From a virus (Duplodnaviria > Heunggongvirae > Uroviricota > Caudoviricetes), in IMG/VR virus record IMGVR_UViG_2548876858_000019: DNA of 13,031 bases. The stretch is one strand, 5' to 3'. How positions within the stretch are numbered: position 1 is the stretch's first letter; the number at the start of each line of letters is the position of its first letter. Both the position numbers and the translations under genes were made by a program. Positions 2,125-13,031 of this stretch are shown one piece after another. The notes beneath the pieces are model-generated. The model did no database searches and was not told where the DNA came from. It saw only the letters and a program-made list of their open reading frames with translations.

Positions 2125-2200
2125 TGTATCGAATTTGACACAATACCCGCCCGCAGTAATCAGACCGTCAAGCAAATATCGTTGTACTGTTCACGACACA
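2125..2200 (+). promoter_or_regulatory. two TGT-N12-ACA dyads (Ogr/Delta-box-like) upstream of the portal gene
   Basis: TTGTATCGAATTTGACACAA (2124-2143) and TTGTACTGTTCACGACACAC (2182-2201); each has exact TGT-N12-ACA spacing and shares 14-15 of 20 positions with the dyad upstream of the sid-like gene. Confidence 0.4.
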
Positions 2201-2236
2201 CCTGATCACTCAAGAATTGTTCACAGCGAGAAAAAT

Positions 2237-3262
2237 ATGGATAACCCGGACAAAACTCCCGTACCTGAGGTCACTGTAGCAACAGAACCGCAGCCCTCTG
2301 CAGAATGCTTCACCTTTGGCGATCCCATTCCGGTACTGGACCGGCGCGAGCTGCTTGATTATGTGGAGTGCGTACAGATTGATCGCTGGTATGAACCGCC
2401 GGTCAGTTTTGCCGGGCTGGCACGTACCTACCGCGCTGCCGTGCATCACAGTTCACCAATTGCTGTTAAGCGTGACATTCTCAGCAGCACCTTCATCCCA
2501 CACCGCTTGCTCAGCCAGCAGTCTTTCGCCCGTTTCGTTCAGGATTATCTGGTGTTTGGTAATGCTTATCTGGAAAAGCGCACCAACTGGCTGGGTGATG
2601 TCCTCTCACTGGAGCCAGCGCTGGCAAAGTATACCCGGCGCGGCGTTGACCTAGAATCCTACTGGTTTGTGAACTACGGCCTGACGATGCAGCCTTATGA
2701 GTTCACCAGAGGCAACATTTTTCATCTGATGGAGCCGGATATTAACCAAGAGATTTACGGGCTGCCCGGTTATCTCTCCGCCATTCCGTCAACCCTGCTC
2801 AACGAGTCCGCAACGCTGTTCCGTCGGAAATATTACATCAACGGCAGCCATGTAGGCTTCATCATGTACATGACCGACGCTGCGCAGAATCAGGAGGATG
2901 TGAACAACATCCGCAAGGCAATGAAAAGTGCCAAAGGACCGGGCAATTTTCGCAATCTCTTTATGTACTCACCCAATGGCAAAAAAGATGGCATCCAGAT
3001 CATCCCCCTATCCGAAGTTGCGGCGAAAGATGAGTTTCTGAACATCAAGAACGTGAGCCGTGATGACATGATGGCAGCGCACCGTGTGCCACCGCAGATG
3101 ATGGGAATCATGCCGAGTAACGTTGGGGGGTTTGGAGATGTAGAAAAAGCCAGCCGTGTTTTTGTTCGCAACGAACTGATGCCGCTACAGAAGCGACTGC
3201 AGGAACTGAACGACTGGTGTGGCGAGAAAATAATTAGTTTTGAACCTTATACACTTGAGTAA
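2237..3262 (+). CDS. phage portal protein, P2 Q / PBSX-type
   Basis: 341 aa from ATG 2237 (track ORF starts at TTG 2135; trimmed); portal-like clip motif RDDMMAAHRVPPQMMGI; length close to P2 Q as I recall it; ends at TAA 3260-3262 before a terminator. Confidence 0.7.
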   Translation: MDNPDKTPVPEVTVATEPQPSAECFTFGDPIPVLDRRELLDYVECVQIDRWYEPPVSFAGLARTYRAAVHHSSPIAVKRDILSSTFIPHRLLSQQSFARFVQDYLVFGNAYLEKRTNWLGDVLSLEPALAKYTRRGVDLESYWFVNYGLTMQPYEFTRGNIFHLMEPDINQEIYGLPGYLSAIPSTLLNESATLFRRKYYINGSHVGFIMYMTDAAQNQEDVNNIRKAMKSAKGPGNFRNLFMYSPNGKKDGIQIIPLSEVAAKDEFLNIKNVSRDDMMAAHRVPPQMMGIMPSNVGGFGDVEKASRVFVRNELMPLQKRLQELNDWCGEKIISFEPYTLE

Positions 3263-3263
3263 T

Positions 3264-3289
3264 AAAAAAGCCACTGAAGTGGCTTTTTT
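3264..3289. terminator. bidirectional rho-independent terminator between portal gene and gene Y
   Basis: AAAAAAGCCAC-TGAA-GTGGCTTTTTT: GC stem with 4-nt loop flanked by A6 and T6, so a U-run follows the hairpin on both strands; 1 bp after portal stop and 8 bp after Y stop. Confidence 0.65.
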
Positions 3290-3291
3290 AT

Positions 3292-4257
3292 TTAATCGGG
3301 AAGGTTACGTAAATCGATATATGAGAAAAATGCGGCACCTTTCTCAGTTAACTCGTATCGAAGATATCGATTTTCCATTATTGGCGTTGTTTTGAGTAGG
3401 CCATGGACCATCATTAACGTGCAAACATTTCTAACCAAAAAACCAGCTAAGTCAGTCGAATTTGATCTTAACCCAGAAAGAATAGTTCCTCTATACAGCA
3501 AAATGAGTCGCATTGCTGTTGTTTTAACTGGCTCTGGAGTTTCGGATAATTTTGTCGGGATCGTTAACTGTGTATTTTCAAATAGCTTATATATTTTACT
3601 GAACTCTTCCTCAGATGGTTTTTTTACTATAGCTTTACTTTCAGGAGAACGTGCAGCTCTGAGAAGTTCAACCTCAGATTTTAAAGCTTCATTTTCCTTC
3701 GTTAGTTTAGATATTTGTTCTATTAACACACTTGACTCTGATATTTCCTTTCCAGAAACCCACCCAAGGAGATTTCTCTCGACACCAATTTGAGGAAGTG
3801 TCTTATAAATTGATATTTGTATATCTTTAATATCCCGAAAAAATTCCACCGGATACCCCTTGACCTTTTGTTTGAAAGCTTCATATTTTGTCGGGTTATC
3901 TAATTCAAGAACTTCCTTACCAACTGTTTTAACTTTTTCATCTAGATATTCGTCATCAATGACTATCGAAAATAGAGGTTTGTTTGTACTTAAAGCATAA
4001 TCATATTCGAGCTCTGTATAGCAATAATCACTGCCGGGAGCAATCGTTCCATAACGCCCTCCCAGAATAAGGATGTAGATATCTGACTCATCTATCCAGC
4101 GCTTAATAATTTCTAACTGGCTTCTGTCTCCAGGCTTAAATAGCTCCATTCCCGCAGGTATATGCCCGGCAGTTAATATGGCACTTACCGCAGCTTGCCT
4201 TTCTTCAATGAGGTCTGTAAAAGTTGATGAAATGAAAACTTGAAATTTCCTATTCAT
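3292..4257 (-). CDS. DUF4062-like domain protein with coiled-coil and C-terminal domain of unknown function (candidate defence cargo)
   Basis: 321 aa from ATG 4255-4257; N-terminus MNRKFQVFISSTFTDLIEERQAAV...ILILGGRYGTIAPGSDYCYTELEYDYA fits the FISSTF/ER/GGRYG/TExEY signature I associate with DUF4062; central coiled-coil (ISKLTKENEALKSEVELLRAA); visibly AT-rich; terminators on both sides. Confidence 0.8.
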   Translation of the reverse strand: MNRKFQVFISSTFTDLIEERQAAVSAILTAGHIPAGMELFKPGDRSQLEIIKRWIDESDIYILILGGRYGTIAPGSDYCYTELEYDYALSTNKPLFSIVIDDEYLDEKVKTVGKEVLELDNPTKYEAFKQKVKGYPVEFFRDIKDIQISIYKTLPQIGVERNLLGWVSGKEISESSVLIEQISKLTKENEALKSEVELLRAARSPESKAIVKKPSEEEFSKIYKLFENTQLTIPTKLSETPEPVKTTAMRLILLYRGTILSGLRSNSTDLAGFLVRNVCTLMMVHGLLKTTPIMENRYLRYELTEKGAAFFSYIDLRNLPD

Positions 4258-5827: not shown

Positions 5828-5914
5828 ACGGGCGTTTGCGGTTATTCAGACGCGGCCATGACAGCCAGCCAGATAAAAATGCCTCTGTTTCAGCCTGCTT
5901 TATGTCCCGGATGC

Positions 5915-6110
5915 GGTGAAACAGGTGGAACAGGTGTTACAGCATTGTTTTGTAAAACATTTATATGCACATCACAGGTGAAACATCGCAGGTAACAAGG
6001 TGGAACAGCGGATCGGCTGGCGTTCCACCTGTTCCACCTCACTATTTCAGAAGGTGAAACAGGTTTAGCCCTTGTAAAATACGGGTGTTCCACCTGTTTC
6101 ACCTGTTACC
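5915..6110. repeat. iteron array, candidate replication origin / crr-like site
   Basis: At least nine copies of the 9-mer GGTG(A/G)AACA or its complement TGTT(C/T)CACC: plus orientation at 5915, 5924, 5977, 5999, 6053; minus orientation at 6021/6030, 6086, 6095, with tandem pairs; AT-rich stretch 5941-5970 in the middle; 28 bp downstream of the primase stop. Confidence 0.7.
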
Positions 6111-6137
6111 CTTAATAAATAAGACTCACGCAAAGCC

Positions 6138-8810
6138 TTAACCCGGCACCTCGCTGTTGAAGACATAGAGTCTGCGGGGATTCATCTCTGGCGGGCGAAT
6201 GGTTGTCTGCAGCTTGCCATCGGTGGAGGGCAGCAGGTATCCACGATCCGCGCACAGACGCGCCACCTTGCGCGGGTCAAATCCCCGGCAGATTTCTTTC
6301 CAGCCGGACGGCATGACGTAGAACGTGGTGACGGCCTCCGTGCCCTGCGCGGTACTGCCTTTCTCCACCCTGCGCCAGCCCACCATATTGCCGGGGCGGT
6401 TACGCTCGTCGTGCCAGTCAGCAAAGCGGCTGTACTGATTCGCGGTAAAGAAGCTGCGTACCTGCTCCAGTGCGGCAATATCTTCCTGATTGGCGGTGTG
6501 CCCGCGATCTTTCAGCCATGCGTTCAGGCAGACGCGGGTTGCCCGCAGCGCTTCACCCTCAGGCCAGCCGGTAATACCCAGCCGGGTTGCCAGCTCGCCC
6601 GCCATCGCCACCAGTGCAAAGCGGTTCACAGCCCGGCCTACCTGATTACCCGCATCTTTCGGGGTCAGGGCGGCTGTATATTCCTTCATCAGTGACTTTG
6701 CCTGTGCCGTCAGCCCGTTAAGGTCAGCGGTCAGGGCTTTCAGCCACTCCCTGAACGGCGAACCGTAGTAGCTGGACGTGGCCCACTCCAGATGTTCCGC
6801 CAGAGCCTTGCCGCTGTCGAAGCCGTGCAGCTCCTCAAATACGCCAAATTTCCCGGAATCGCTGGGGATCTGGATCATCCTGACTTCCATCCCGGCAAAG
6901 GTACGCTCACCGGCTTTTGCCGCATGTTCGGTCAGTGACAGCTCGCCGGTTGAAAAGAACAGCAGCCGCCACTGCTTACGGGTGCGCAGCTCACCGTCCG
7001 TACCGGCACGGCCCTTGCCCTGACCGTTTGCCAGCATGTAGGCGATATTACCCGCCTCGCGTCCGTCCACCTCCCGGATCTCATCGAGCATCATGGCGGC
7101 ATCGTTGCGGCGGCTGGCGCATCCCTCCAGCGCGTTGCCGGTTGCCCGCCACGTCTGCCAGTAATCAGGCCCGCCACAAACGGAGGTTGCCGCTTTCATG
7201 GTGGTGGTCTTACCGTCAGTCGATTCCCCCTTGAGGTGGTAGCCGCCGCCGTCCATCCCAACCAGCCGTAACAGGGGTGCAGCAAAGGCCAGACTGACGG
7301 CAAACGCCACGCGGGAGTTACCGGTGCAGTAACGGGAAACGTGCTCCCGCCATTCCTCCGTTGTACCTGACACACGGAAATCGCGCCCCTGCACGGAAGT
7401 GGTCTGGAGAATGACACCCTCTGCACCTTCACCGCTGACCTCATCCTGCAGGACGTAAACCTGACCATGCCAGCCAGTGCGGCTGACGCAGGTCACGCGG
7501 CGTTCCGGTTTACACAGCGAGATATATTCCATCAGGCGGGCGCGGGCCTCACCGGTGGTGCTGATATAGGACAGCCCGTTAACCAGCAGTACCCGGCGTA
7601 GTTCCTCACCGCTACCACTGAGCATTTCCATCGGCATCGCCCAGCGGCGGCGCTCTCCCCATGTATCTTCCCACTCCAGCAGTCGCCCGAAATTACCGCC
7701 ATCAGCATCGCAGGTGATTGCCGTCACGCGCAACGGGTTGCATATTTTGACGTTCTGGATCTCCGTCTCACCGTTGCGCTGTACCTGTTTTTCATACCAG
7801 AGATATTCCTGGGTAAGACGGAACCCGTGCGGCAACTGCGTGCGGCCTTCTCCGCACAGTACAAGACCGTTACGAAAGGCTTCACGGGCACGTGTAATAC
7901 CGTGCTCACGGTGGAAGTCATTCCAGTCAGCTTTAATTTCTCCCGGTGGCAGCGTCACCCAGCCACCGACTGATTTTGCCGCCCGTTCAGCAAAGGATCT
8001 GCCGGGATTCTCGCCCCCGTCCTGAAAATCGTTATCACCGGCGATGATAATTTTTACCTCAGGCCAGCGTGCCCGCAGCGCCTGTGCGACGTTGGGCAGG
8101 TTGCCCGCCGATATGGCCGCCACTACGCATCCGGCGGTGAGCTGGCTTACCGTCAGCGCCGTGGCGTAACCTTCGGTAATCACCACCTGTACCGGCGGTT
8201 CAGACGGTAACGGGCTGAGCGCCACAAACGCGCCTTTCATCGTGCTGCCGGGCAGTATGCTTTTTTCACCCGTCGGGGCGATAAGCTGTGCACCGGTCAC
8301 GGCTCCGGCGTTCGTCGTGAGCGGTAACAGCAGGGAACCGGCAGGGAAATCCTTACCACTGATATGCTGCACGCTCCCGGTCAGGGAGGCCGGGTATCCG
8401 GCGAACCCTTTTCCGGTCAGATAGGGGCTTTCTCCCGTGTGACTCTCTTTCATCAGGGCCGCCACGGTAAGGCTCATATCGCGTTTAGGGGCTTTTTGCC
8501 TGGCGGGCTTAACGGGCAGTTCCTGCACATCCGGCACATTAAGCACCTGCGCCACCTCCTGCGCTGCCTTTCTGATGCCGTAACCGGTTATGAGCTTAAC
8601 CAGATCCAGACCATCACCATTGCCGCACTGGCTGCAAATCCACGTCCCGCGCCCGTCGAGGTCATCGAGGCGGAAGCGATCCTTGCCCCCACATTTCGGG
8701 CAGGGACCGTGCCTGCCGTTTTCAGGTACATCAATACGCAGCATCTGCAGAATGACGGGCCATTTTCCCCGCGCTGCGGCTGAAATCTGCGTAACCGTCT
8801 GTGTTGTCAT
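6138..8810 (-). CDS. P4 alpha-type primase-helicase (zinc finger + Toprim + P-loop NTPase)
   Basis: 890 aa; N-terminal HGPCPKCGG...CSQCGNGDG zinc finger; Toprim-like ITEGYATALTV and IIAGDNDFQDGG; Walker A GESTDGKTT; GGGGGA Shine-Dalgarno; ATG overlaps the TGA of the upstream ORF. Confidence 0.85.
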   Translation of the reverse strand: MTTQTVTQISAAARGKWPVILQMLRIDVPENGRHGPCPKCGGKDRFRLDDLDGRGTWICSQCGNGDGLDLVKLITGYGIRKAAQEVAQVLNVPDVQELPVKPARQKAPKRDMSLTVAALMKESHTGESPYLTGKGFAGYPASLTGSVQHISGKDFPAGSLLLPLTTNAGAVTGAQLIAPTGEKSILPGSTMKGAFVALSPLPSEPPVQVVITEGYATALTVSQLTAGCVVAAISAGNLPNVAQALRARWPEVKIIIAGDNDFQDGGENPGRSFAERAAKSVGGWVTLPPGEIKADWNDFHREHGITRAREAFRNGLVLCGEGRTQLPHGFRLTQEYLWYEKQVQRNGETEIQNVKICNPLRVTAITCDADGGNFGRLLEWEDTWGERRRWAMPMEMLSGSGEELRRVLLVNGLSYISTTGEARARLMEYISLCKPERRVTCVSRTGWHGQVYVLQDEVSGEGAEGVILQTTSVQGRDFRVSGTTEEWREHVSRYCTGNSRVAFAVSLAFAAPLLRLVGMDGGGYHLKGESTDGKTTTMKAATSVCGGPDYWQTWRATGNALEGCASRRNDAAMMLDEIREVDGREAGNIAYMLANGQGKGRAGTDGELRTRKQWRLLFFSTGELSLTEHAAKAGERTFAGMEVRMIQIPSDSGKFGVFEELHGFDSGKALAEHLEWATSSYYGSPFREWLKALTADLNGLTAQAKSLMKEYTAALTPKDAGNQVGRAVNRFALVAMAGELATRLGITGWPEGEALRATRVCLNAWLKDRGHTANQEDIAALEQVRSFFTANQYSRFADWHDERNRPGNMVGWRRVEKGSTAQGTEAVTTFYVMPSGWKEICRGFDPRKVARLCADRGYLLPSTDGKLQTTIRPPEMNPRRLYVFNSEVPG

Positions 8811-9190
8811 ATTTCCCCCTGATACAGCGATACACCCGAGCTGCAGAAGTCATCAAATGCCGCCGGAAGTGTGCGGTACAGCTCCGCCATCACTTCACAG
8901 CCGCGCACAGTCAGTACCGGTGGCGCGGTCAGCAATGATGGCTCCAGCATGTCAGTCAGCAGCGCCAGTGCAGCCGCTGCTCCCTGTGCTTCGCCATATT
9001 CGTTAATCAGTGCGCACTCGATATGCAGGGCAATGGCCATTTCAATACGTTCAACCGTCAGGCTGTGCGGACCATAGTGATCGCAGCCGGTTTCGGTCAG
9101 CGCTTTCTGGCGCCAGGCCGATGCAATAGCCCGCCGGTAAAGCGCAGTGGTCATTTCTGCCGGAAAAATAGAAACCTGCGGCTGGTTCAT
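8807..9190 (-). CDS. hypothetical protein (replication-module small ORF)
   Basis: 127 aa; strong AAGGAGG Shine-Dalgarno 7 nt before ATG; ATGA overlaps at both ends with neighbouring ORFs; no recognisable motif. Confidence 0.5.
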   Translation of the reverse strand: MNQPQVSIFPAEMTTALYRRAIASAWRQKALTETGCDHYGPHSLTVERIEMAIALHIECALINEYGEAQGAAAALALLTDMLEPSLLTAPPVLTVRGCEVMAELYRTLPAAFDDFCSSGVSLYQGEI

Positions 9191-9471
9191 TGGGTGCCTC
9201 CTTCAATCAGTTCGCAACTGTGCGCAATATCCGTCAAATCTGCCCGCAGGTACTCCATCAGCGCGGCGATGCCTGGCGCACATCCTGCATCCAGCGTTCC
9301 GCCCTGCGAGGGGTATTCAGAAAAGAGAAGCTGCAACATGTCGCAGGCCTTTCTGGCGCGGTCCAGCTTTCCGAAACCGTCCTCTGACAACCCATACGCA
9401 AAAGCACCGCTATTGTGTTTTTCAGGCAAAGCGTGGCCCTGAGCACCGTTGTGCCCGTTTGAAATATTCAT
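9187..9471 (-). CDS. hypothetical protein (replication-module small ORF)
   Basis: 94 aa; ATG 9469-9471 with GGAG upstream; stop overlaps the next start (ATGA). Confidence 0.45.
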   Translation of the reverse strand: MNISNGHNGAQGHALPEKHNSGAFAYGLSEDGFGKLDRARKACDMLQLLFSEYPSQGGTLDAGCAPGIAALMEYLRADLTDIAHSCELIEGGTQ

Positions 9472-9502
9472 CGTGGATTACTCCGTTTTCAGCGGTGTTT
9501 TG

Positions 9503-9862
9503 TCAGAGAAACTTTGAATAGTGACTGTCGTCAGGTTCAGCAGAACGCCGTATGCTGCGCTCCCGCCAGCGGGTAAATACCACCGACGGATGCAGCGTCA
9601 GCGAGCCAGAGCCGCTACCCCCCGCGGGAGCTAGCGAAGGTTTAAAGAGCGGGGCATTAAACAGGCGCGTATACCGCTGCTCAAACCATGCCAGAGGGCA
9701 GGAAGAAAGCTTATTGTCGCTGTCATGACGAATCAGCACTTCACAGCTGAATTCAGGGTTAACCAGCGCCACGGAGGGCGAGGCTTCAGTTAATCTGATA
9801 ATCGTGACAGTCCAGCCACGCTCATGCTGCCAGCGTTCGCCGGGTTGCGGATAATTACGCAT
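9503..9862 (-). CDS. hypothetical protein
   Basis: Track ORF starts at TTG 9892; first ATG at 9860-9862 is preceded by GGAGGTG and overlaps the stop of the upstream small ORF (ATGCGTAA); C-terminal half is low complexity (AGGSGSGS). Confidence 0.4.
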   Translation of the reverse strand: MRNYPQPGERWQHERGWTVTIIRLTEASPSVALVNPEFSCEVLIRHDSDNKLSSCPLAWFEQRYTRLFNAPLFKPSLAPAGGSGSGSLTLHPSVVFTRWRERSIRRSAEPDDSHYSKFL

Positions 9863-10031
9863 GTTCACCTCCACAGGGAATGCGACCGGCAAAGCTCAGC
9901 ACATAGTCCGGGGCAAGTCTGCGCCGCGCTGAGCGCTCGTTATCTGCGGTGATCCTTAACATCACAGGACGGGCATTGCGTTGACTGCGGTTGATCGCCG
10001 CAAATAACCAGGTACACTTCTGTTTAGCCAT
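9855..10031 (-). CDS. hypothetical small basic protein (first gene of the leftward operon)
   Basis: Track ORF starts at GTG 10085; ATG 10029-10031 preceded by GAGGT gives 58 aa MAKQKCTWLFAAINRSQRNARPVMLRITADNERSARRRLAPDYV...; coupled to the next ORF. Confidence 0.35.
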   Translation of the reverse strand: MAKQKCTWLFAAINRSQRNARPVMLRITADNERSARRRLAPDYVLSFAGRIPCGGEHA

Positions 10032-10113
10032 TTTCGTTACCTCATCTAACGCTTTGGTCAGACGCCTCGGCAGTGCCGCAAACACTCCGGGGCGTTGCTA
10101 TTTTGATTCCTTG

Positions 10114-10169
10114 TGTGTAATGTGTCATTACACATAAGCACATTACAATAGGTGTAATTGACGTGTCAA
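10114..10169. promoter_or_regulatory. operator-like palindromes in a divergent promoter region
   Basis: Perfect inverted repeat TGTGTAATG-tgt-CATTACACA (10114-10134) and palindrome TTGACGTGTCAA (10158-10169) overlapping the GTG start of the ribbon-helix-helix gene; lies between the leftward small-ORF/primase operon and the rightward RHH gene. Confidence 0.45.
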
Positions 10170-10342
10170 CACACAAGAACGAAAGACGTGGTAATCCACC
10201 ATTCCAGTTCAGACTTGACCCTGAATTGCGTGAGTTAATGGAAGAAGCACAGCAGCAGGATGGTGATGAATCACTGGCTGCTTGGATCAAACGCATTATC
10301 CGCAAAGAGCTACAAAGTCGTGGTTCCGAACCAAAGAACTGA
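10163..10342 (+). CDS. putative ribbon-helix-helix (Arc/CopG-like) DNA-binding protein
   Basis: 59-aa frame from GTG 10163 to TGA 10340-10342, absent from the ORF track (below its 60-aa cutoff); VSTHKNERRGNPPFQFRLDPELRELMEEAQQQDGDESLAAWIKRIIRKEL has the basic N-terminus, short beta-strand and two helices typical of RHH regulators; AGGTG upstream; the antisense 121-aa track ORF looks non-coding. Confidence 0.45.
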   Translation: MSTHKNERRGNPPFQFRLDPELRELMEEAQQQDGDESLAAWIKRIIRKELQSRGSEPKN

Positions 10343-10352
10343 TAAATACATG

Positions 10353-10379
10353 GGGAAGATTTTCTTCTTTCCCATTTTT
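10353..10379 (+). terminator. possible terminator after the RHH gene
   Basis: Imperfect hairpin GGGAAGA-tttt-cTTCTTTCCC followed by ATTTTTC. Confidence 0.3.
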
Positions 10380-10393
10380 CTAAGGTCGTCATA

Positions 10394-10603
10394 TTATTTA
10401 TCAGCATCTGAGGATTGAGCTTTTACCCACTGTCTAATTTCTTGTGCATCGTAAACAGTTACCCGTTTTGAAATACGTGTGGATTTTGGAAATTCAGGAT
10501 TGTTTTTTTCCCAGCGCCAGAGAGTAACTGTGCTTACTTGCAAAAAGTCAGCAGTAGCCCGTGGGCGGGCATGCCCGGTGATAGGGTAAGTTTTTAATGT
10601 CAT
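10394..10603 (-). CDS. alpA: AlpA/Vis-family phage transcriptional regulator
   Basis: 69 aa; TADFLQVSTVTLWRWEKNNPEFPKSTRISKRVTVYDAQEIRQWV fits the AlpA-type helix-turn-helix pattern; typical size and position next to a P4-type integrase. Confidence 0.7.
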   Translation of the reverse strand: MTLKTYPITGHARPRATADFLQVSTVTLWRWEKNNPEFPKSTRISKRVTVYDAQEIRQWVKAQSSDADK

Positions 10604-10609
10604 GAAATT

Positions 10610-10637
10610 ACCTGCCGTGTTATGTAATGAACACGGC
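10610..10637. other. 10-bp-stem hairpin immediately upstream of the alpA start
   Basis: CTGCCGTGTT-(8 nt)-AACACGGCAG; on the minus strand its 3' arm runs into the alpA ribosome-binding site (CAGGTAATTTCATG). Confidence 0.4.
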
Positions 10638-10710
10638 AGATGATGGCAAGGTTAGGGCTAAATTATCAGTGCCACTATTTTGTTTTTATGATGGTATAAA
10701 ATATTACCAC

Positions 10711-11685
10711 TTAAAATCTTCCTGCTTTAGATGAGCTAAGACATTCTTTTATCTTATCTTTTCCAAGTTCAACCTTTGTTTTTGGATTGTTTCTTTCTGC
10801 CACGATTTTATCTGCCCACGCGTCAATAGTCAGTTTTCCTCGTTTTCCATTGCAAGATGCTGGGTCATTTAGTAACCAATAAATAGCTGCTTTGTACACT
10901 GCCTCTCTTTTTGTTGCTGATGCTTCAACATTACCATGCACTCTTCGGATGCTTTCGATGCTGGATACACCACCATTCACATAGCTGGGTAGCTCTTTGC
11001 CAACACCGTTATCTAATTTTTCTATTTGGTATCTTGTTAAATAGATATCATCCAGTGTTATATTTCCAATAATATTTTTATTAGATGGAGATACTAATCC
11101 CTCTATTGATGATAAGCCTTCGAAAGGGGACATTGCTAATATTACCCACTCATCACTGCCAAATGCAGCATTAGTGAATGGCATATTAGCTTCTTTAAAA
11201 GAAATATCATGTGCTAATAGCCTTGCTTTACCATATACCTTTAGTTCTTTGTATAATGAAGATGTTGGGCTGATGACACATATAGACCACAATCCAGAAA
11301 GTAAGATTAATGGGCTTTTTATATTTGGTTTGTTTTCTAAATGGTATATTTGTTTTGGAGGTGAAAATGGCTTATCTTCTGTATAATCAATATCGAATTT
11401 TGCTTTTGGTATGAAATGGCTTAATGCAGATTTATTACTATAGTTTAATACTCTGGGTGGGTACATGTTTTCCCAATCTTTAAAATCTCCACCTTTACGC
11501 ATCATCATTAGCGCAGCTTCGAAACCATTTAATTCTAAGCAAAATTCGATAATTCCAATTTGAGCAAAATGGATAAGGTCATCAATTTGGCAATTAAGTA
11601 GTTCAGCAGCTCGTTTTAGGGAGCAAAATTCCATTACAGGAATACTATTCCTTTCCCAAACATTTAATCGTGTATTATCGCTCAT
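10711..11685 (-). CDS. hypothetical protein X, AT-rich, between integrase and alpA
   Basis: Track ORF starts at TTG 11763 overlapping the int stop; ATG 11683-11685 has a good AGGTGA Shine-Dalgarno and gives 324 aa starting MSDNTRLNVWERNSIPVMEF; no motif I can name; visibly AT-rich. Confidence 0.6.
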   Translation of the reverse strand: MSDNTRLNVWERNSIPVMEFCSLKRAAELLNCQIDDLIHFAQIGIIEFCLELNGFEAALMMMRKGGDFKDWENMYPPRVLNYSNKSALSHFIPKAKFDIDYTEDKPFSPPKQIYHLENKPNIKSPLILLSGLWSICVISPTSSLYKELKVYGKARLLAHDISFKEANMPFTNAAFGSDEWVILAMSPFEGLSSIEGLVSPSNKNIIGNITLDDIYLTRYQIEKLDNGVGKELPSYVNGGVSSIESIRRVHGNVEASATKREAVYKAAIYWLLNDPASCNGKRGKLTIDAWADKIVAERNNPKTKVELGKDKIKECLSSSKAGRF

Positions 11686-11759
11686 CACGTCACCTGTATG
11701 CACATATGGTAAAATGGGGCGAATAGCAGACTTTACTACTATTAGCCATTTTCTTATTT

Positions 11760-13031
11760 TCAAACAACGCGTAGTTTTTTCATTTTATAGGGGGCAATAT
11801 ATCTATCAGTGTTAGCTTCAATATAATTAGACCACCATTGCATCATCCGACGACGTTCATGCATATGCTGAGCTAAGTGTACATAAGCGGCTCGCACTTC
11901 ATTTCGTTCTTGATGGCTCATTTGCCGTTCTACTGCATCCCTCGACCATAAGCCTGATTCTGTCAGGGCTGAGCACGCCATTGCCCTAAATCCATGAAGG
12001 CAAATGTCCACCTGCGTGTCGTACCCCATAATTCTTAATGACTTATTAACTGTGTTCTCACTCATTGGTTTGTAAGGGTTACTATCTCCGGGGAAAATAA
12101 GTTCATACTCACCACTTATTTTTTTAATAGCTTCGAGAACATCAATAGCTTCATTAGATAATGGAACATAATGAATACTGCCCATTTTTGCCCCACGCTC
12201 TGAATATTTTACCCCATCAATTCTTTTTCTTTGAGCAGGAATAGTCCACATTGCATTTTCAAAATTAATTTCCTCCCATCTTGCGTGTCTCAGTTCACTG
12301 GAGCGAACAAAAGTATGAAGAGAAAATAATACTGCCAGCTTAGTTAACGGCCTCCCTGTATAGCTATCAATTTTTGATATTAATTCGGGTAATCGTTCTA
12401 ACGGAAGTGCAGGGCGATGCTTTATTTTGGGGCTGGAAATTGCTCCTCTTAGATCATGGGTAGGATTGTATTCAACAATTCCACGCTGAATAGCGTACCG
12501 GAAAACGCTTGCAAGAGTAGTTTTCACTCTTCCTGTTGTTGCTCCAATTCCCTGATCACTCATCCTCACCAATAATGGCAACAGGTCACTTGTTTTTAAT
12601 GAGTCGATGGGTTTATTTCCGATATATGGGAAAATATGATTTTCCATTTCTCTTAAAATTTTAGTGCGGGTAATCTCTTTCCATGAGGGATGGCCTATAG
12701 AGCCTTTATGCCACTCTAAAGCGATTGTCTGGAATGTAGCAGAGGCGGGTTCTGTTGGCGCTGCTTTTTTAGATACTCTGGGATCAACACCGTCGGCTAA
12801 AAGTTGCCTTGCTTCATCTCTACGCTTACGGGCAAGTGCCAGCGAAACGTCTGGGAAAACGCCCAAAGCCAGCGTAGCTTGTTTGCCGTTAAATCTGTAG
12901 TTCATTCGCCATGCCTTGGTCCCGTTCTTTTTAACTAAAAGATACAGGCTTCCCCCATCCGTCAGTTTGTAGTCTGTTTCTTTGGGTTTAGCGTTTTCAA
13001 CTTTCTTGGGTGATAGCTCATTTAGTGCCAT
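11760..13031 (-). CDS. tyrosine recombinase, P4 / CP4-57 IntA-type integrase
   Basis: 423 aa; N-terminal arm-binding region (YKLTDGGSLYLLVKKNGTKAWRMNYRFNGK); catalytic-region HGFR (HxxR) and tyrosine in RAAYVHL; start codon is the last three bases of the window, facing the presumed tRNA. Confidence 0.9.
   Translation of the reverse strand: MALNELSPKKVENAKPKETDYKLTDGGSLYLLVKKNGTKAWRMNYRFNGKQATLALGVFPDVSLALARKRRDEARQLLADGVDPRVSKKAAPTEPASATFQTIALEWHKGSIGHPSWKEITRTKILREMENHIFPYIGNKPIDSLKTSDLLPLLVRMSDQGIGATTGRVKTTLASVFRYAIQRGIVEYNPTHDLRGAISSPKIKHRPALPLERLPELISKIDSYTGRPLTKLAVLFSLHTFVRSSELRHARWEEINFENAMWTIPAQRKRIDGVKYSERGAKMGSIHYVPLSNEAIDVLEAIKKISGEYELIFPGDSNPYKPMSENTVNKSLRIMGYDTQVDICLHGFRAMACSALTESGLWSRDAVERQMSHQERNEVRAAYVHLAQHMHERRRMMQWWSNYIEANTDRYIAPYKMKKLRVV

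Follow-up and report, generated by a model that had tools for sequence, protein, structure and literature searches.

The question raised by the stretch of viral DNA analysed here (13,031 nucleotides; IMG/VR record IMGVR_UViG_2548876858_000019; referred to below as the window) is what is encoded by four small open reading frames (ORFs) that precede a primase-helicase gene on its minus strand, and whether any of their products acts on a helper phage. The cassette represents the left operon of the satellite phage P4 in a lineage-specific form, with two genes swapped. In the fuller reading that we favour, and which we hold to be moderately probable, it makes up the leading part of the early ('left') operon in a P4-related satellite lineage integrated at tRNA-Arg in Escherichia coli, and consists of kil (ORF1), an orf151-like gene (ORF2), an epsilon-like gene (ORF3) and cnr (ORF4), followed by the gene for an alpha-like primase-helicase (Table 1).

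The genes are tightly packed. ORF1 and ORF2 overlap by 8 nt in the sequence ATGCGTAA (9862-9855), and the motif ATGA joins ORF3 to ORF4 (9190-9187) and ORF4 to alpha (8810-8807); ORF2 and ORF3 do not overlap and are separated by a gap of 31 nt. Shine-Dalgarno (SD) sequences were located by eye and are listed in Table 1. This layout of four minus-strand ORFs with overlaps and SD sequences, ending in the primase gene, had been described in an initial annotation made from the sequence alone; we confirm it, and the RefSeq calls made by the Prokaryotic Genome Annotation Pipeline (PGAP) agree, with exactly the same four coding sequences (CDS) in an E. coli chromosome that is 100% identical. In the RefSeq record the site of the element is a tRNA-Arg and the csc sucrose genes adjoin it. 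The region is matched in 336 of 5426 complete E. coli genomes, and over at least 80% of its length in 73. The order of the five genes recurs in Citrobacter, Enterobacter, Shigella, Pantoea, Erwinia and other Enterobacterales, and the 8 nt ORF1/ORF2 and 4 nt ORF3/ORF4 overlaps are kept in related loci of this order. The relatives of ORF3 (n = 69) and ORF2 (n = 39) all belong to the Enterobacterales and are all unnamed, PGAP labelling ORF2 and ORF3 as hypothetical; every relative of ORF2 opens with MR(N/E)YPQPGE, which backs its start codon.

Pairwise ratios of nonsynonymous to synonymous substitution rates (dN/dS) are 0.11-0.15 for ORF1, 0.23-0.28 for ORF2, 0.20-0.48 for ORF3, 0.14-0.19 for ORF4 and 0.05-0.15 for alpha, with dS near saturation in the pairs compared. 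Because the ORFs are short and no curated family covers ORF2 or ORF3, some of them might be chance reading frames, and the initial annotation had itself allowed for a lack of conservation that would mean they are not genes. The frames are, however, intact and their junctions unchanged in different genera, at identities as low as 33-55%, the dN/dS values lie below 0.5, SD sites are present and PGAP calls all four. The conservation data exclude the chance-frame explanation, to which we give practically no weight. Judged from their sequences, the four ORFs are genes that purifying selection has preserved across E. coli, Pantoea and Erwinia.

Gene order was read from neighbourhoods in Erwinia, Pantoea and other genera and from 11 loci found via Cnr. 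The upstream part comprises an integrase, an unnamed gene, AlpA and a small divergent gene; the middle part comprises genes of 58-59, 117-151, 93-94 and 113-127 amino acids, the last being DUF5375; and the downstream part comprises a TOPRIM-DUF927 primase, a Sid/Psu-family gene, Ogr/Delta and variable cargo. This order is identical in all 14 comparison loci of the lineage (the window, L003, L007 and L010-L020), one of which is without an Icd match, and in three further loci. Pfam matches in the window itself include the integrase, a Psu/Sid-family protein (25% identical to P4 Sid), Ogr/Delta and AlpA. The element is related to P4, and the proposal that the cassette occupies the position at which P4 keeps its small regulatory genes is correct.

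The first and last of the four ORFs can be named directly, which overturns the earlier statement that none has a motif that can be named. ORF1 matches NF033153 (phage_ICD_like) over model positions 1-47 of 48 with E = 5.5e-24 and 84 bits (cut-off 25), and shares 54% identity with residues 86-131 of the P4 'cI' (eta/kil) frame, which are the Icd-like domain of that frame. The ATG and SD sequence of ORF1 are kept in related loci, the sequence upstream of them is a non-coding leader, and Pfam finds no Ash/eta extension on the kil frame of ORF1, unlike that of P4. We firmly assign ORF1 as an Icd-like protein homologous to P4 Kil and encoded by the predicted first translated gene of the operon; the idea of helper manipulation does not apply to it. 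In P4, Kil reportedly corresponds to the last 65 residues of the frame. It is said to be the first protein translated after the early promoter and to kill cells on overexpression, and translation of kil reportedly prevents Rho-dependent termination.

ORF4 matches PF17345 (DUF5375) with E = 3.8e-14 and 52.9 bits (cut-off 30), falls in phrog_5991, the same PHROG as P4 ORF106, and is 43% identical to ORF106 (E = 2e-18). It adjoins alpha both in the window, through the ATGA overlap, and in all related loci. A search of the Protein Data Bank (PDB) with the Cnr profile returned a single weak and non-significant match (E = 0.081). The assignment of ORF4 as a homologue of Cnr (DUF5375) is firm on these sequence matches. 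In P4, cnr is said to control copy number through alpha. ORF106 is identified as cnr, the copy-number regulator, by Moura de Sousa and Rocha (PMC8628076). The suggestion that the small ORFs encode helper-manipulating factors fails for ORF4 because it is the homologue of a replication accessory protein, a finding that the initial annotation had itself named as counting against such a role.

Downstream of ORF4, the alpha-like protein contains the Pfam domains Zn_Ribbon_Prim, Toprim_3 and DUF927. Over residues 6-316 it shares 37% identity with P4 alpha; the remainder is not P4-like, and the DUF927 helicase half resembles the SaPI replication initiator Rep (8tch) and the SCCmec Cch helicase (5dgk). 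By its domain composition the primase-helicase is a hybrid of a P4-like primase half and a helicase half of SaPI Rep/Cch type. Between alpha and the Sid-like gene we noted a cluster of iterons, GGTG(A/G)AACAGGT or ACCTGTT(C/T)CACC, with at least ten copies in both orientations (repeat families D1-D4 and inverted repeats I1-I14). These resemble the annotated 'ori type 1 repeats' of P4, the sequence of which we take to be TGTTCACC. The cluster is probably the replication origin and a candidate target of alpha and Cnr.

ORF2 belongs with phrog_30862 (E = 6.6e-83) and has no direct match to phrog_10748, the model of P4 orf151; a BLASTP comparison with P4 orf151 gave a weak alignment (22% identity, E = 4e-4). 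When the families were compared as profiles with hhalign, they aligned over residues 1-65, the N-terminal domain, with a probability of 85.5% and E = 5.7e-6. The protein in the ORF2 slot of locus L078 is intermediate: its 151 amino acids align with P4 orf151 from end to end at 40% identity (E = 3e-41), and it matches ORF2 with E = 8e-6. The two families also have a common C-terminal tail, PD(D/N)S(H)Y..(F/Y)L, which reads ...PDDSHYSKFL in ORF2 and ...PDNSYRNYL in orf151. An AlphaFold2 (AF2) model of ORF2 has an SH3-like β-barrel at residues 1-63, with a predicted local distance difference test score (pLDDT) of about 65-85, followed by a disordered linker; Foldseek searches of the PDB and BFVD with this model gave nothing at E = 0.001 and returned generic SH3/Tudor-like barrels alone, and a sequence search of the PDB with the family profiles of ORF2 and ORF3 gave no match. 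Because of the profile alignment, the common tail and the L078 intermediate, we firmly place ORF2 in the P4 orf151 family, of which it is a shortened representative.

The assignment of ORF3 depends on more remote similarity. Its own family is well defined (phrog_14861, E = 7.7e-38), and further relatives, to about 30% identity, came from a profile search among 1.84 billion representative proteins. No alignment with P4 epsilon was obtained by BLASTP. Comparison of profiles with hhalign, by contrast, gave a signal that rose steadily with the diversity of the profiles: 8% probability (E = 0.0041) when the ORF3 family was aligned with P4 epsilon as a single sequence, 30% (E = 5.7e-4) with a small epsilon alignment, 74.9% (E = 2.6e-5) when both families were expanded, the epsilon family being PF25738 (Derepression), and 85.7% (E = 5.4e-6) after the addition of one more divergent sequence. 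The controls were far weaker, with E = 0.42 for a reversed epsilon profile, a best E of 0.012 and a median of 0.32 for 30 column shuffles, and E = 0.02-0.7 for other small families of the same operons. When the epsilon hidden Markov model (HMM) was run on 4946 decoy ORFs from all of the fetched loci, the first non-epsilon matches were orthologues of ORF3 (E = 0.0014 and 0.006), and in reciprocal HMM searches the ORF3 and epsilon families were each other's best non-self match. For two orthologues that occupy the same operon slot as ORF3, P0114 and P0117, the top Pfam match is PF25738 (E = 0.0076 and 0.028; 16.4 and 14.6 bits, cut-off 27).

Both families contain the motifs LSxExFxKLxRA and YLxxDLxxV in the same order, the second reading YLHEDLRFVI in P0117 and YLHEDISYVL in epsilon. 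ORF3 lies between kil and cnr, as epsilon does. Together with ORF2 it is the fastest evolving gene of the operon (53-62% identity, compared with 95-97% for the C-terminal half of alpha), and epsilon is likewise the fastest evolving gene of P4-type operons. The AF2 model of ORF3 is a helical hairpin (helices 30-52 and 65-92) with a mean pLDDT of 70.

Several observations weigh against this interpretation, or against the favoured reading of the operon as a whole. The window ORF3 itself has no match to PF25738 at E = 0.1 or better and is not listed by the epsilon HMM at E = 10 or better, and it is among the least epsilon-like members of its own family. The link relies on profiles of low diversity, with an effective number of sequences (Neff) of 2-3, and on two short helical motifs, and the hhalign probabilities stay below 90%, the usual level being 90-95%. 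The structural model is of moderate confidence and has no significant neighbour in the PDB or BFVD, where Foldseek found generic helical hairpins. In most P4-type elements the slot of ORF3 holds a different protein, of 75 amino acids, and the order of the orf151-like and epsilon-like genes is reversed relative to P4, the orf151-like gene coming first in the window. Finally, since the C-terminal half of alpha is unrelated to that of P4, the Cnr-alpha interaction is not simply transferable.

Weighing both sides, we consider ORF3 quite likely to be homologous to epsilon and regard it, as a probable remote epsilon homologue, as a candidate helper antirepressor. The comparison with P4 epsilon that the initial annotation had called for thus has a divided outcome: the two proteins are unlike at the level of BLAST and Pfam, and the match between their families, well above the controls, is suggestive. 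Similarly, the profile searches that it proposed place ORF2 with orf151 and ORF3 close to epsilon, while the structural searches gave no significant matches, and its idea of helper-manipulating factors, lost for ORF4, is supported for ORF3 alone, and indirectly.

The 75-amino-acid protein deserves separate consideration. It is the protein that Moura de Sousa and Rocha (PMC8628076) found to be prevalent in P4-like satellites and absent from P4. In 49 of the 55 loci L021-L075 its gene, of about 225 nt, lies directly upstream of cnr, which it overlaps by 4 nt (for example, L040, 3777-4004), and the protein belongs to no Pfam or NCBIfam family. It is like ORF3 in its slot, its similar size, a weak full-length alignment and a conserved cysteine in register. 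The signal is marginal: hhalign gave E = 0.78 for the two families, with a better score for the reversed control, and a larger ORF3 profile gave E = 0.021, which is within the range of the shuffles. The ORF3 profile also aligns weakly to the 75-amino-acid protein over its full length (E = 0.008-0.07 and 1.4e-3). A value of E = 1.2e-4 is not independent because the sequence that had been added belongs to the 75-amino-acid family, and the similarity is non-significant without this bridging sequence. The 75-amino-acid protein is a positional analogue, and a possible distant relative, of ORF3.

Two groups, this lineage and the P4 type, are apparent among 66 Cnr loci, and the 14 lineage loci were compared with 55 loci of P4 type. 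The kil frame is Icd-like alone in this lineage and is an eta/kil frame with an Ash extension in the P4 type; Cnr has 124-127 amino acids compared with 106; and alpha is of DUF927 type compared with P4 type. ORF2 and ORF3 occur together in 14 of the 14 lineage loci and in none of the 55 of P4 type, where the slot upstream of cnr holds the 75-amino-acid protein in 49. True epsilon and orf151 are found in about ten of the 55, a count that includes P4 and three P4-identical contaminant contigs. Four short contigs from metagenome-assembled genomes, L023-L026 (labelled Dysgonomonas, Clostridiales, Ferruginibacter and 'bacterium'), encode proteins 95-100% identical to those of P4; P4 is implausible in those taxa, and the contigs are probably assembly contamination.

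These distributions bear on a rival explanation, namely that ORF3, perhaps with ORF2, serves the Cnr/alpha module of the satellite itself as a replication or regulatory accessory and has no action on a helper, its likeness to epsilon reflecting a shared small helical fold or ancestry. In every case cnr follows ORF3 directly, the two being joined by ATGA, the strict co-occurrence of ORF3 and ORF2 with a long Cnr and a DUF927-type alpha fits such a partner, and the protein that fills the same slot in P4-type loci is weakly matched by the ORF3 profile. Moreover, some elements hold both epsilon and the 75-amino-acid protein, so that whatever fills this slot need not have the function of epsilon. 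Co-occurrence with one type of alpha is, however, equally explained by common descent, the signal between ORF3 and epsilon (E = 2.6e-5) exceeds that between ORF3 and the 75-amino-acid protein (E = 0.021), and ORF3 evolves much faster than Cnr and alpha, which is a better fit to an external and variable target. We regard a purely accessory role as the less likely explanation, although one that retains appreciable weight.

A second alternative is that ORF2, ORF3 or both serve in host takeover or against defences, for example by inhibiting a host or competitor system, and are unconnected with helper derepression and replication. Both are short, rapidly evolving early genes without characterized relatives, and the variable cargo of the lineage beside delta includes UvrD-like, DUF87/HerA, AAA_15/21 and DUF4062 proteins. 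A distant member of the ORF3 family, P0123, also occurs in a different element, beside a Phage_pRha gene. The four ORFs match no PADLOC model, however, they form a conserved core operon and not variable cargo, and homology with orf151 and epsilon indicates the left operon of P4; we think this alternative improbable. With respect to P0123 itself (L079/L080, about 6001-6285), its gene directly follows that of the Phage_pRha-domain protein in an unrelated integrase-bearing element that has a Toprim primase and a DNA methylase.

Returning to ORF3 as an epsilon-like antirepressor, a wider version of this reading would place ORF3, epsilon and the 75-amino-acid protein in a single, rapidly evolving superfamily of small helical antirepressors, the members being adapted to the immunity repressors of different P2-like helpers; an Arc-type switch of varying operator specificity and a conserved leader hairpin would govern the operon here in place of the CI/C4 RNA. 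We advance this tentatively and think it on the whole doubtful. If it were true, most P4-related satellites would carry an overlooked helper-derepression gene, and a switch module would be common to the lineage and at least one Klebsiella phage with an Ant antirepressor. The gene would have been overlooked partly because PF10554 (Ash), the profile used for 'epsilon' in the survey, matches the eta/kil frame: in P4 (locus L002) it matches the eta/'cI' frame (8168-8584) and not epsilon (7888-8175), the true family of which is PF25738.

The region that controls the operon is unlike that of P4. Rfam searches found no C4, isrK or c4-a1b1 RNA in the window, either over its whole length or in the interval 9800-10750 at E values up to 10, whereas all three were detected in the P4 control (74.9 bits for C4). 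An immunity system of the P4 CI/C4 RNA type was rejected on this basis, the search being empty while the control scored. Weak Rfam matches to RT-15, traJ_5 and others lie far under the gathering scores and were attributed to chance. A pattern match instead gave the candidate early promoter TTGACA-N16-TGTAAT, which a consensus scan had missed because the second hexamer has a G at position 2; the -35 hexamer TTGACA is unchanged in each of the 11 related loci compared. Adjacent to it is a palindromic operator candidate, TGTGTAATG-ACA-CATTACACA, and the spacer between the -35 and -10 hexamers contains an extra half-site, ATTACAC (about 10151-10158). In related loci different palindromes are present at both operator positions while TTGACA is unchanged, and such variation is the pattern expected of operators with different immunity specificities.

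Divergent from the operon is a gene for a protein of 59 amino acids resembling Arc and other ribbon-helix-helix proteins. It matches phrog_228 ('Arc-like repressor') with E = 4.9e-6 and, under the cut-off, NF041551 (YlcI/YnfO) with E = 5e-4, and PGAP assigns it to the YlcI/YnfO family in some genomes. A divergent gene with a matching protein (44-93% identity) is present in 12 of the 14 lineage loci. The Arc-like protein is a candidate repressor of the operon, and the promoter region looks like a protein immunity switch of several specificities that stands in place of the CI RNA of P4.

The 5' leader of the operon contains a conserved RNA hairpin, which is followed by an invariant ACCA. Of the 11 pairs assigned by RNAalifold, eight have compensatory changes; 91.7% of cells are paired, compared with 21-50% in slid controls, and none of 500 shuffles reaches that value. 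The hairpin belongs to no Rfam family and could be a site for processing, antitermination or protein binding. Further upstream is an AlpA-family gene (PF05930); P4 ORF88 (vis) is a member of the same Pfam family, and the gene is the predicted counterpart of ORF88/vis. In Klebsiella phage P12620-1 (L081, PQ569648; 2200-3850) we noted the same leader hairpin, SD sequence and ATG (85% identity over about 100 nt) before an Icd-like ORF, which is adjoined by a divergent ribbon-helix-helix-like ORF and an AntA/KilAC antirepressor gene. The record of this phage annotates a CDS of 245 amino acids that spans the leader and is probably a mis-call.

Table 1. Positions of the operon genes and of associated features in the window. 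SD sequences were assigned by eye.
Feature	Position	Strand	Length	Remarks
Iteron cluster, probable origin	5885-6113			Between alpha and Sid-like genes
Alpha-like primase-helicase gene	6138-8810	minus	890 aa	Downstream of ORF4; SD GGGGGA, 3 nt upstream
ORF4 (Cnr homologue)	8807-9190	minus	127 aa	SD GGAGG, 6 nt upstream
ORF3 (candidate epsilon-like)	9187-9471	minus	94 aa	SD GGAG, 9 nt upstream
ORF2 (orf151 family, shortened)	9503-9862	minus	119 aa	Counted from ATG at 9862; SD GGAGG, 5 nt upstream
ORF1 (Icd-like, Kil homologue)	9855-10031	minus	58 aa	From ORF list and sequence; SD GAGG, 8 nt 5' of ATG
5' leader RNA hairpin	10062-10095	minus		Conserved; invariant ACCA follows
Palindromic operator candidate	10110-10138			Inverted repeats I2, I6 and I7
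Candidate early promoter	10142-10169	minus		Pattern match
Arc/ribbon-helix-helix-like gene	10163-10342	plus	59 aa	Divergent from operon
AlpA-family gene	10394-10603	minus		PF05930, E = 7.9e-7; upstream of operon

In common with the P4 left operon, the window has homologues of kil, orf151, cnr and probably epsilon in a co-directional, stop/start-coupled series, the last gene of which encodes a primase-helicase whose primase domain is P4-like. An AlpA/Vis gene lies upstream, P4-like iterons lie beside alpha, and Sid/Psu-family and Delta genes are also present. The window differs from P4 in that the CI/C4 RNA, isrK, a1b1 and the Ash/eta extension are absent, Cnr is 20 amino acids longer, the helicase half of alpha is DUF927 of the SaPI Rep/Cch type, and a divergent Arc-like gene and candidate palindromic operators are found in place of the RNA immunity. 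PF10554 (Ash) and PF03288 (P4-type alpha) are both absent among the Pfam matches of ORF1-ORF4 and alpha. As both are in the profile set of PMC8628076, which classes elements without the two as 'Type C', the element would be assigned to that class.

The immI systems of phages P1 and P22 serve as further points of comparison, for which sequence features alone were examined here. As in P1 immI (c4, icd, ant), the protein translated first is Icd-like and the operon encodes a putative antirepressor; as in P22 immI (mnt/arc, ant), a small Arc-type ribbon-helix-helix candidate regulator is divergent at the promoter. The operon differs from both in having no c4 RNA and in that its putative antirepressor is an epsilon-like hairpin of 94 amino acids and not Ant/KilAC. 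In concept it may be viewed, by analogy, as an immI-type antirepressor operon with icd first as in P1 and an Arc-type regulator as in P22.

In the mechanism that we propose, the Arc-like repressor would release the TTGACA-N16-TGTAAT promoter, giving rise to one polycistronic mRNA. The overlapping stop and start codons would hold ribosomes on this message, so that the five proteins would be made together and Rho-dependent polarity would be avoided, as by kil translation in P4. The Icd/Kil protein would transiently block cell division, and the epsilon-like ORF3 would induce a resident P2-like helper by binding its immunity repressor. Cnr would bind alpha and limit initiation at the iterons, and alpha would replicate the satellite.

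Some features of the window lie outside the operon and its control region. Downstream of delta, the interval 2135-4257 encodes a DUF4062 protein of 321 amino acids on the minus strand and, on the plus strand, a portal-like protein of 375 amino acids that matches part of the Phage_portal model. Since related loci hold UvrD-like, DUF87/HerA and AAA_15/21 genes there, this slot is probably a hotspot for variable cargo or defence genes; PADLOC gave no match in 2135-4257. Between the integrase and AlpA, the minus strand at 10711-11763 encodes a protein of 350 amino acids (324 in PGAP) with no Pfam or NCBIfam family, and related loci have unrelated-looking proteins of 229-276 amino acids at this position. 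In strain Evo1 (L001, 2291-3214) an IS903B lies between cscB and the portal-like gene; it is missing from the window (about 1250-2130).

The analysis gives concrete identities to ORF2 and ORF3, both of which PGAP lists as hypothetical. It suggests that helper derepression may be widespread, through a diversified epsilon-like family, and not a peculiarity of P4. The lineage appears to have replaced the RNA immunity of P4 with a protein switch that has interchangeable operators, which bears on how satellites that share a host may avoid cross-repression. There is also a problem of markers in the survey literature, in that the 'epsilon' profile PF10554 misses the real epsilon protein. P4 is the textbook satellite, yet most of its relatives differ from it. 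The result refines the map of a known system and does not overturn the current understanding of it.

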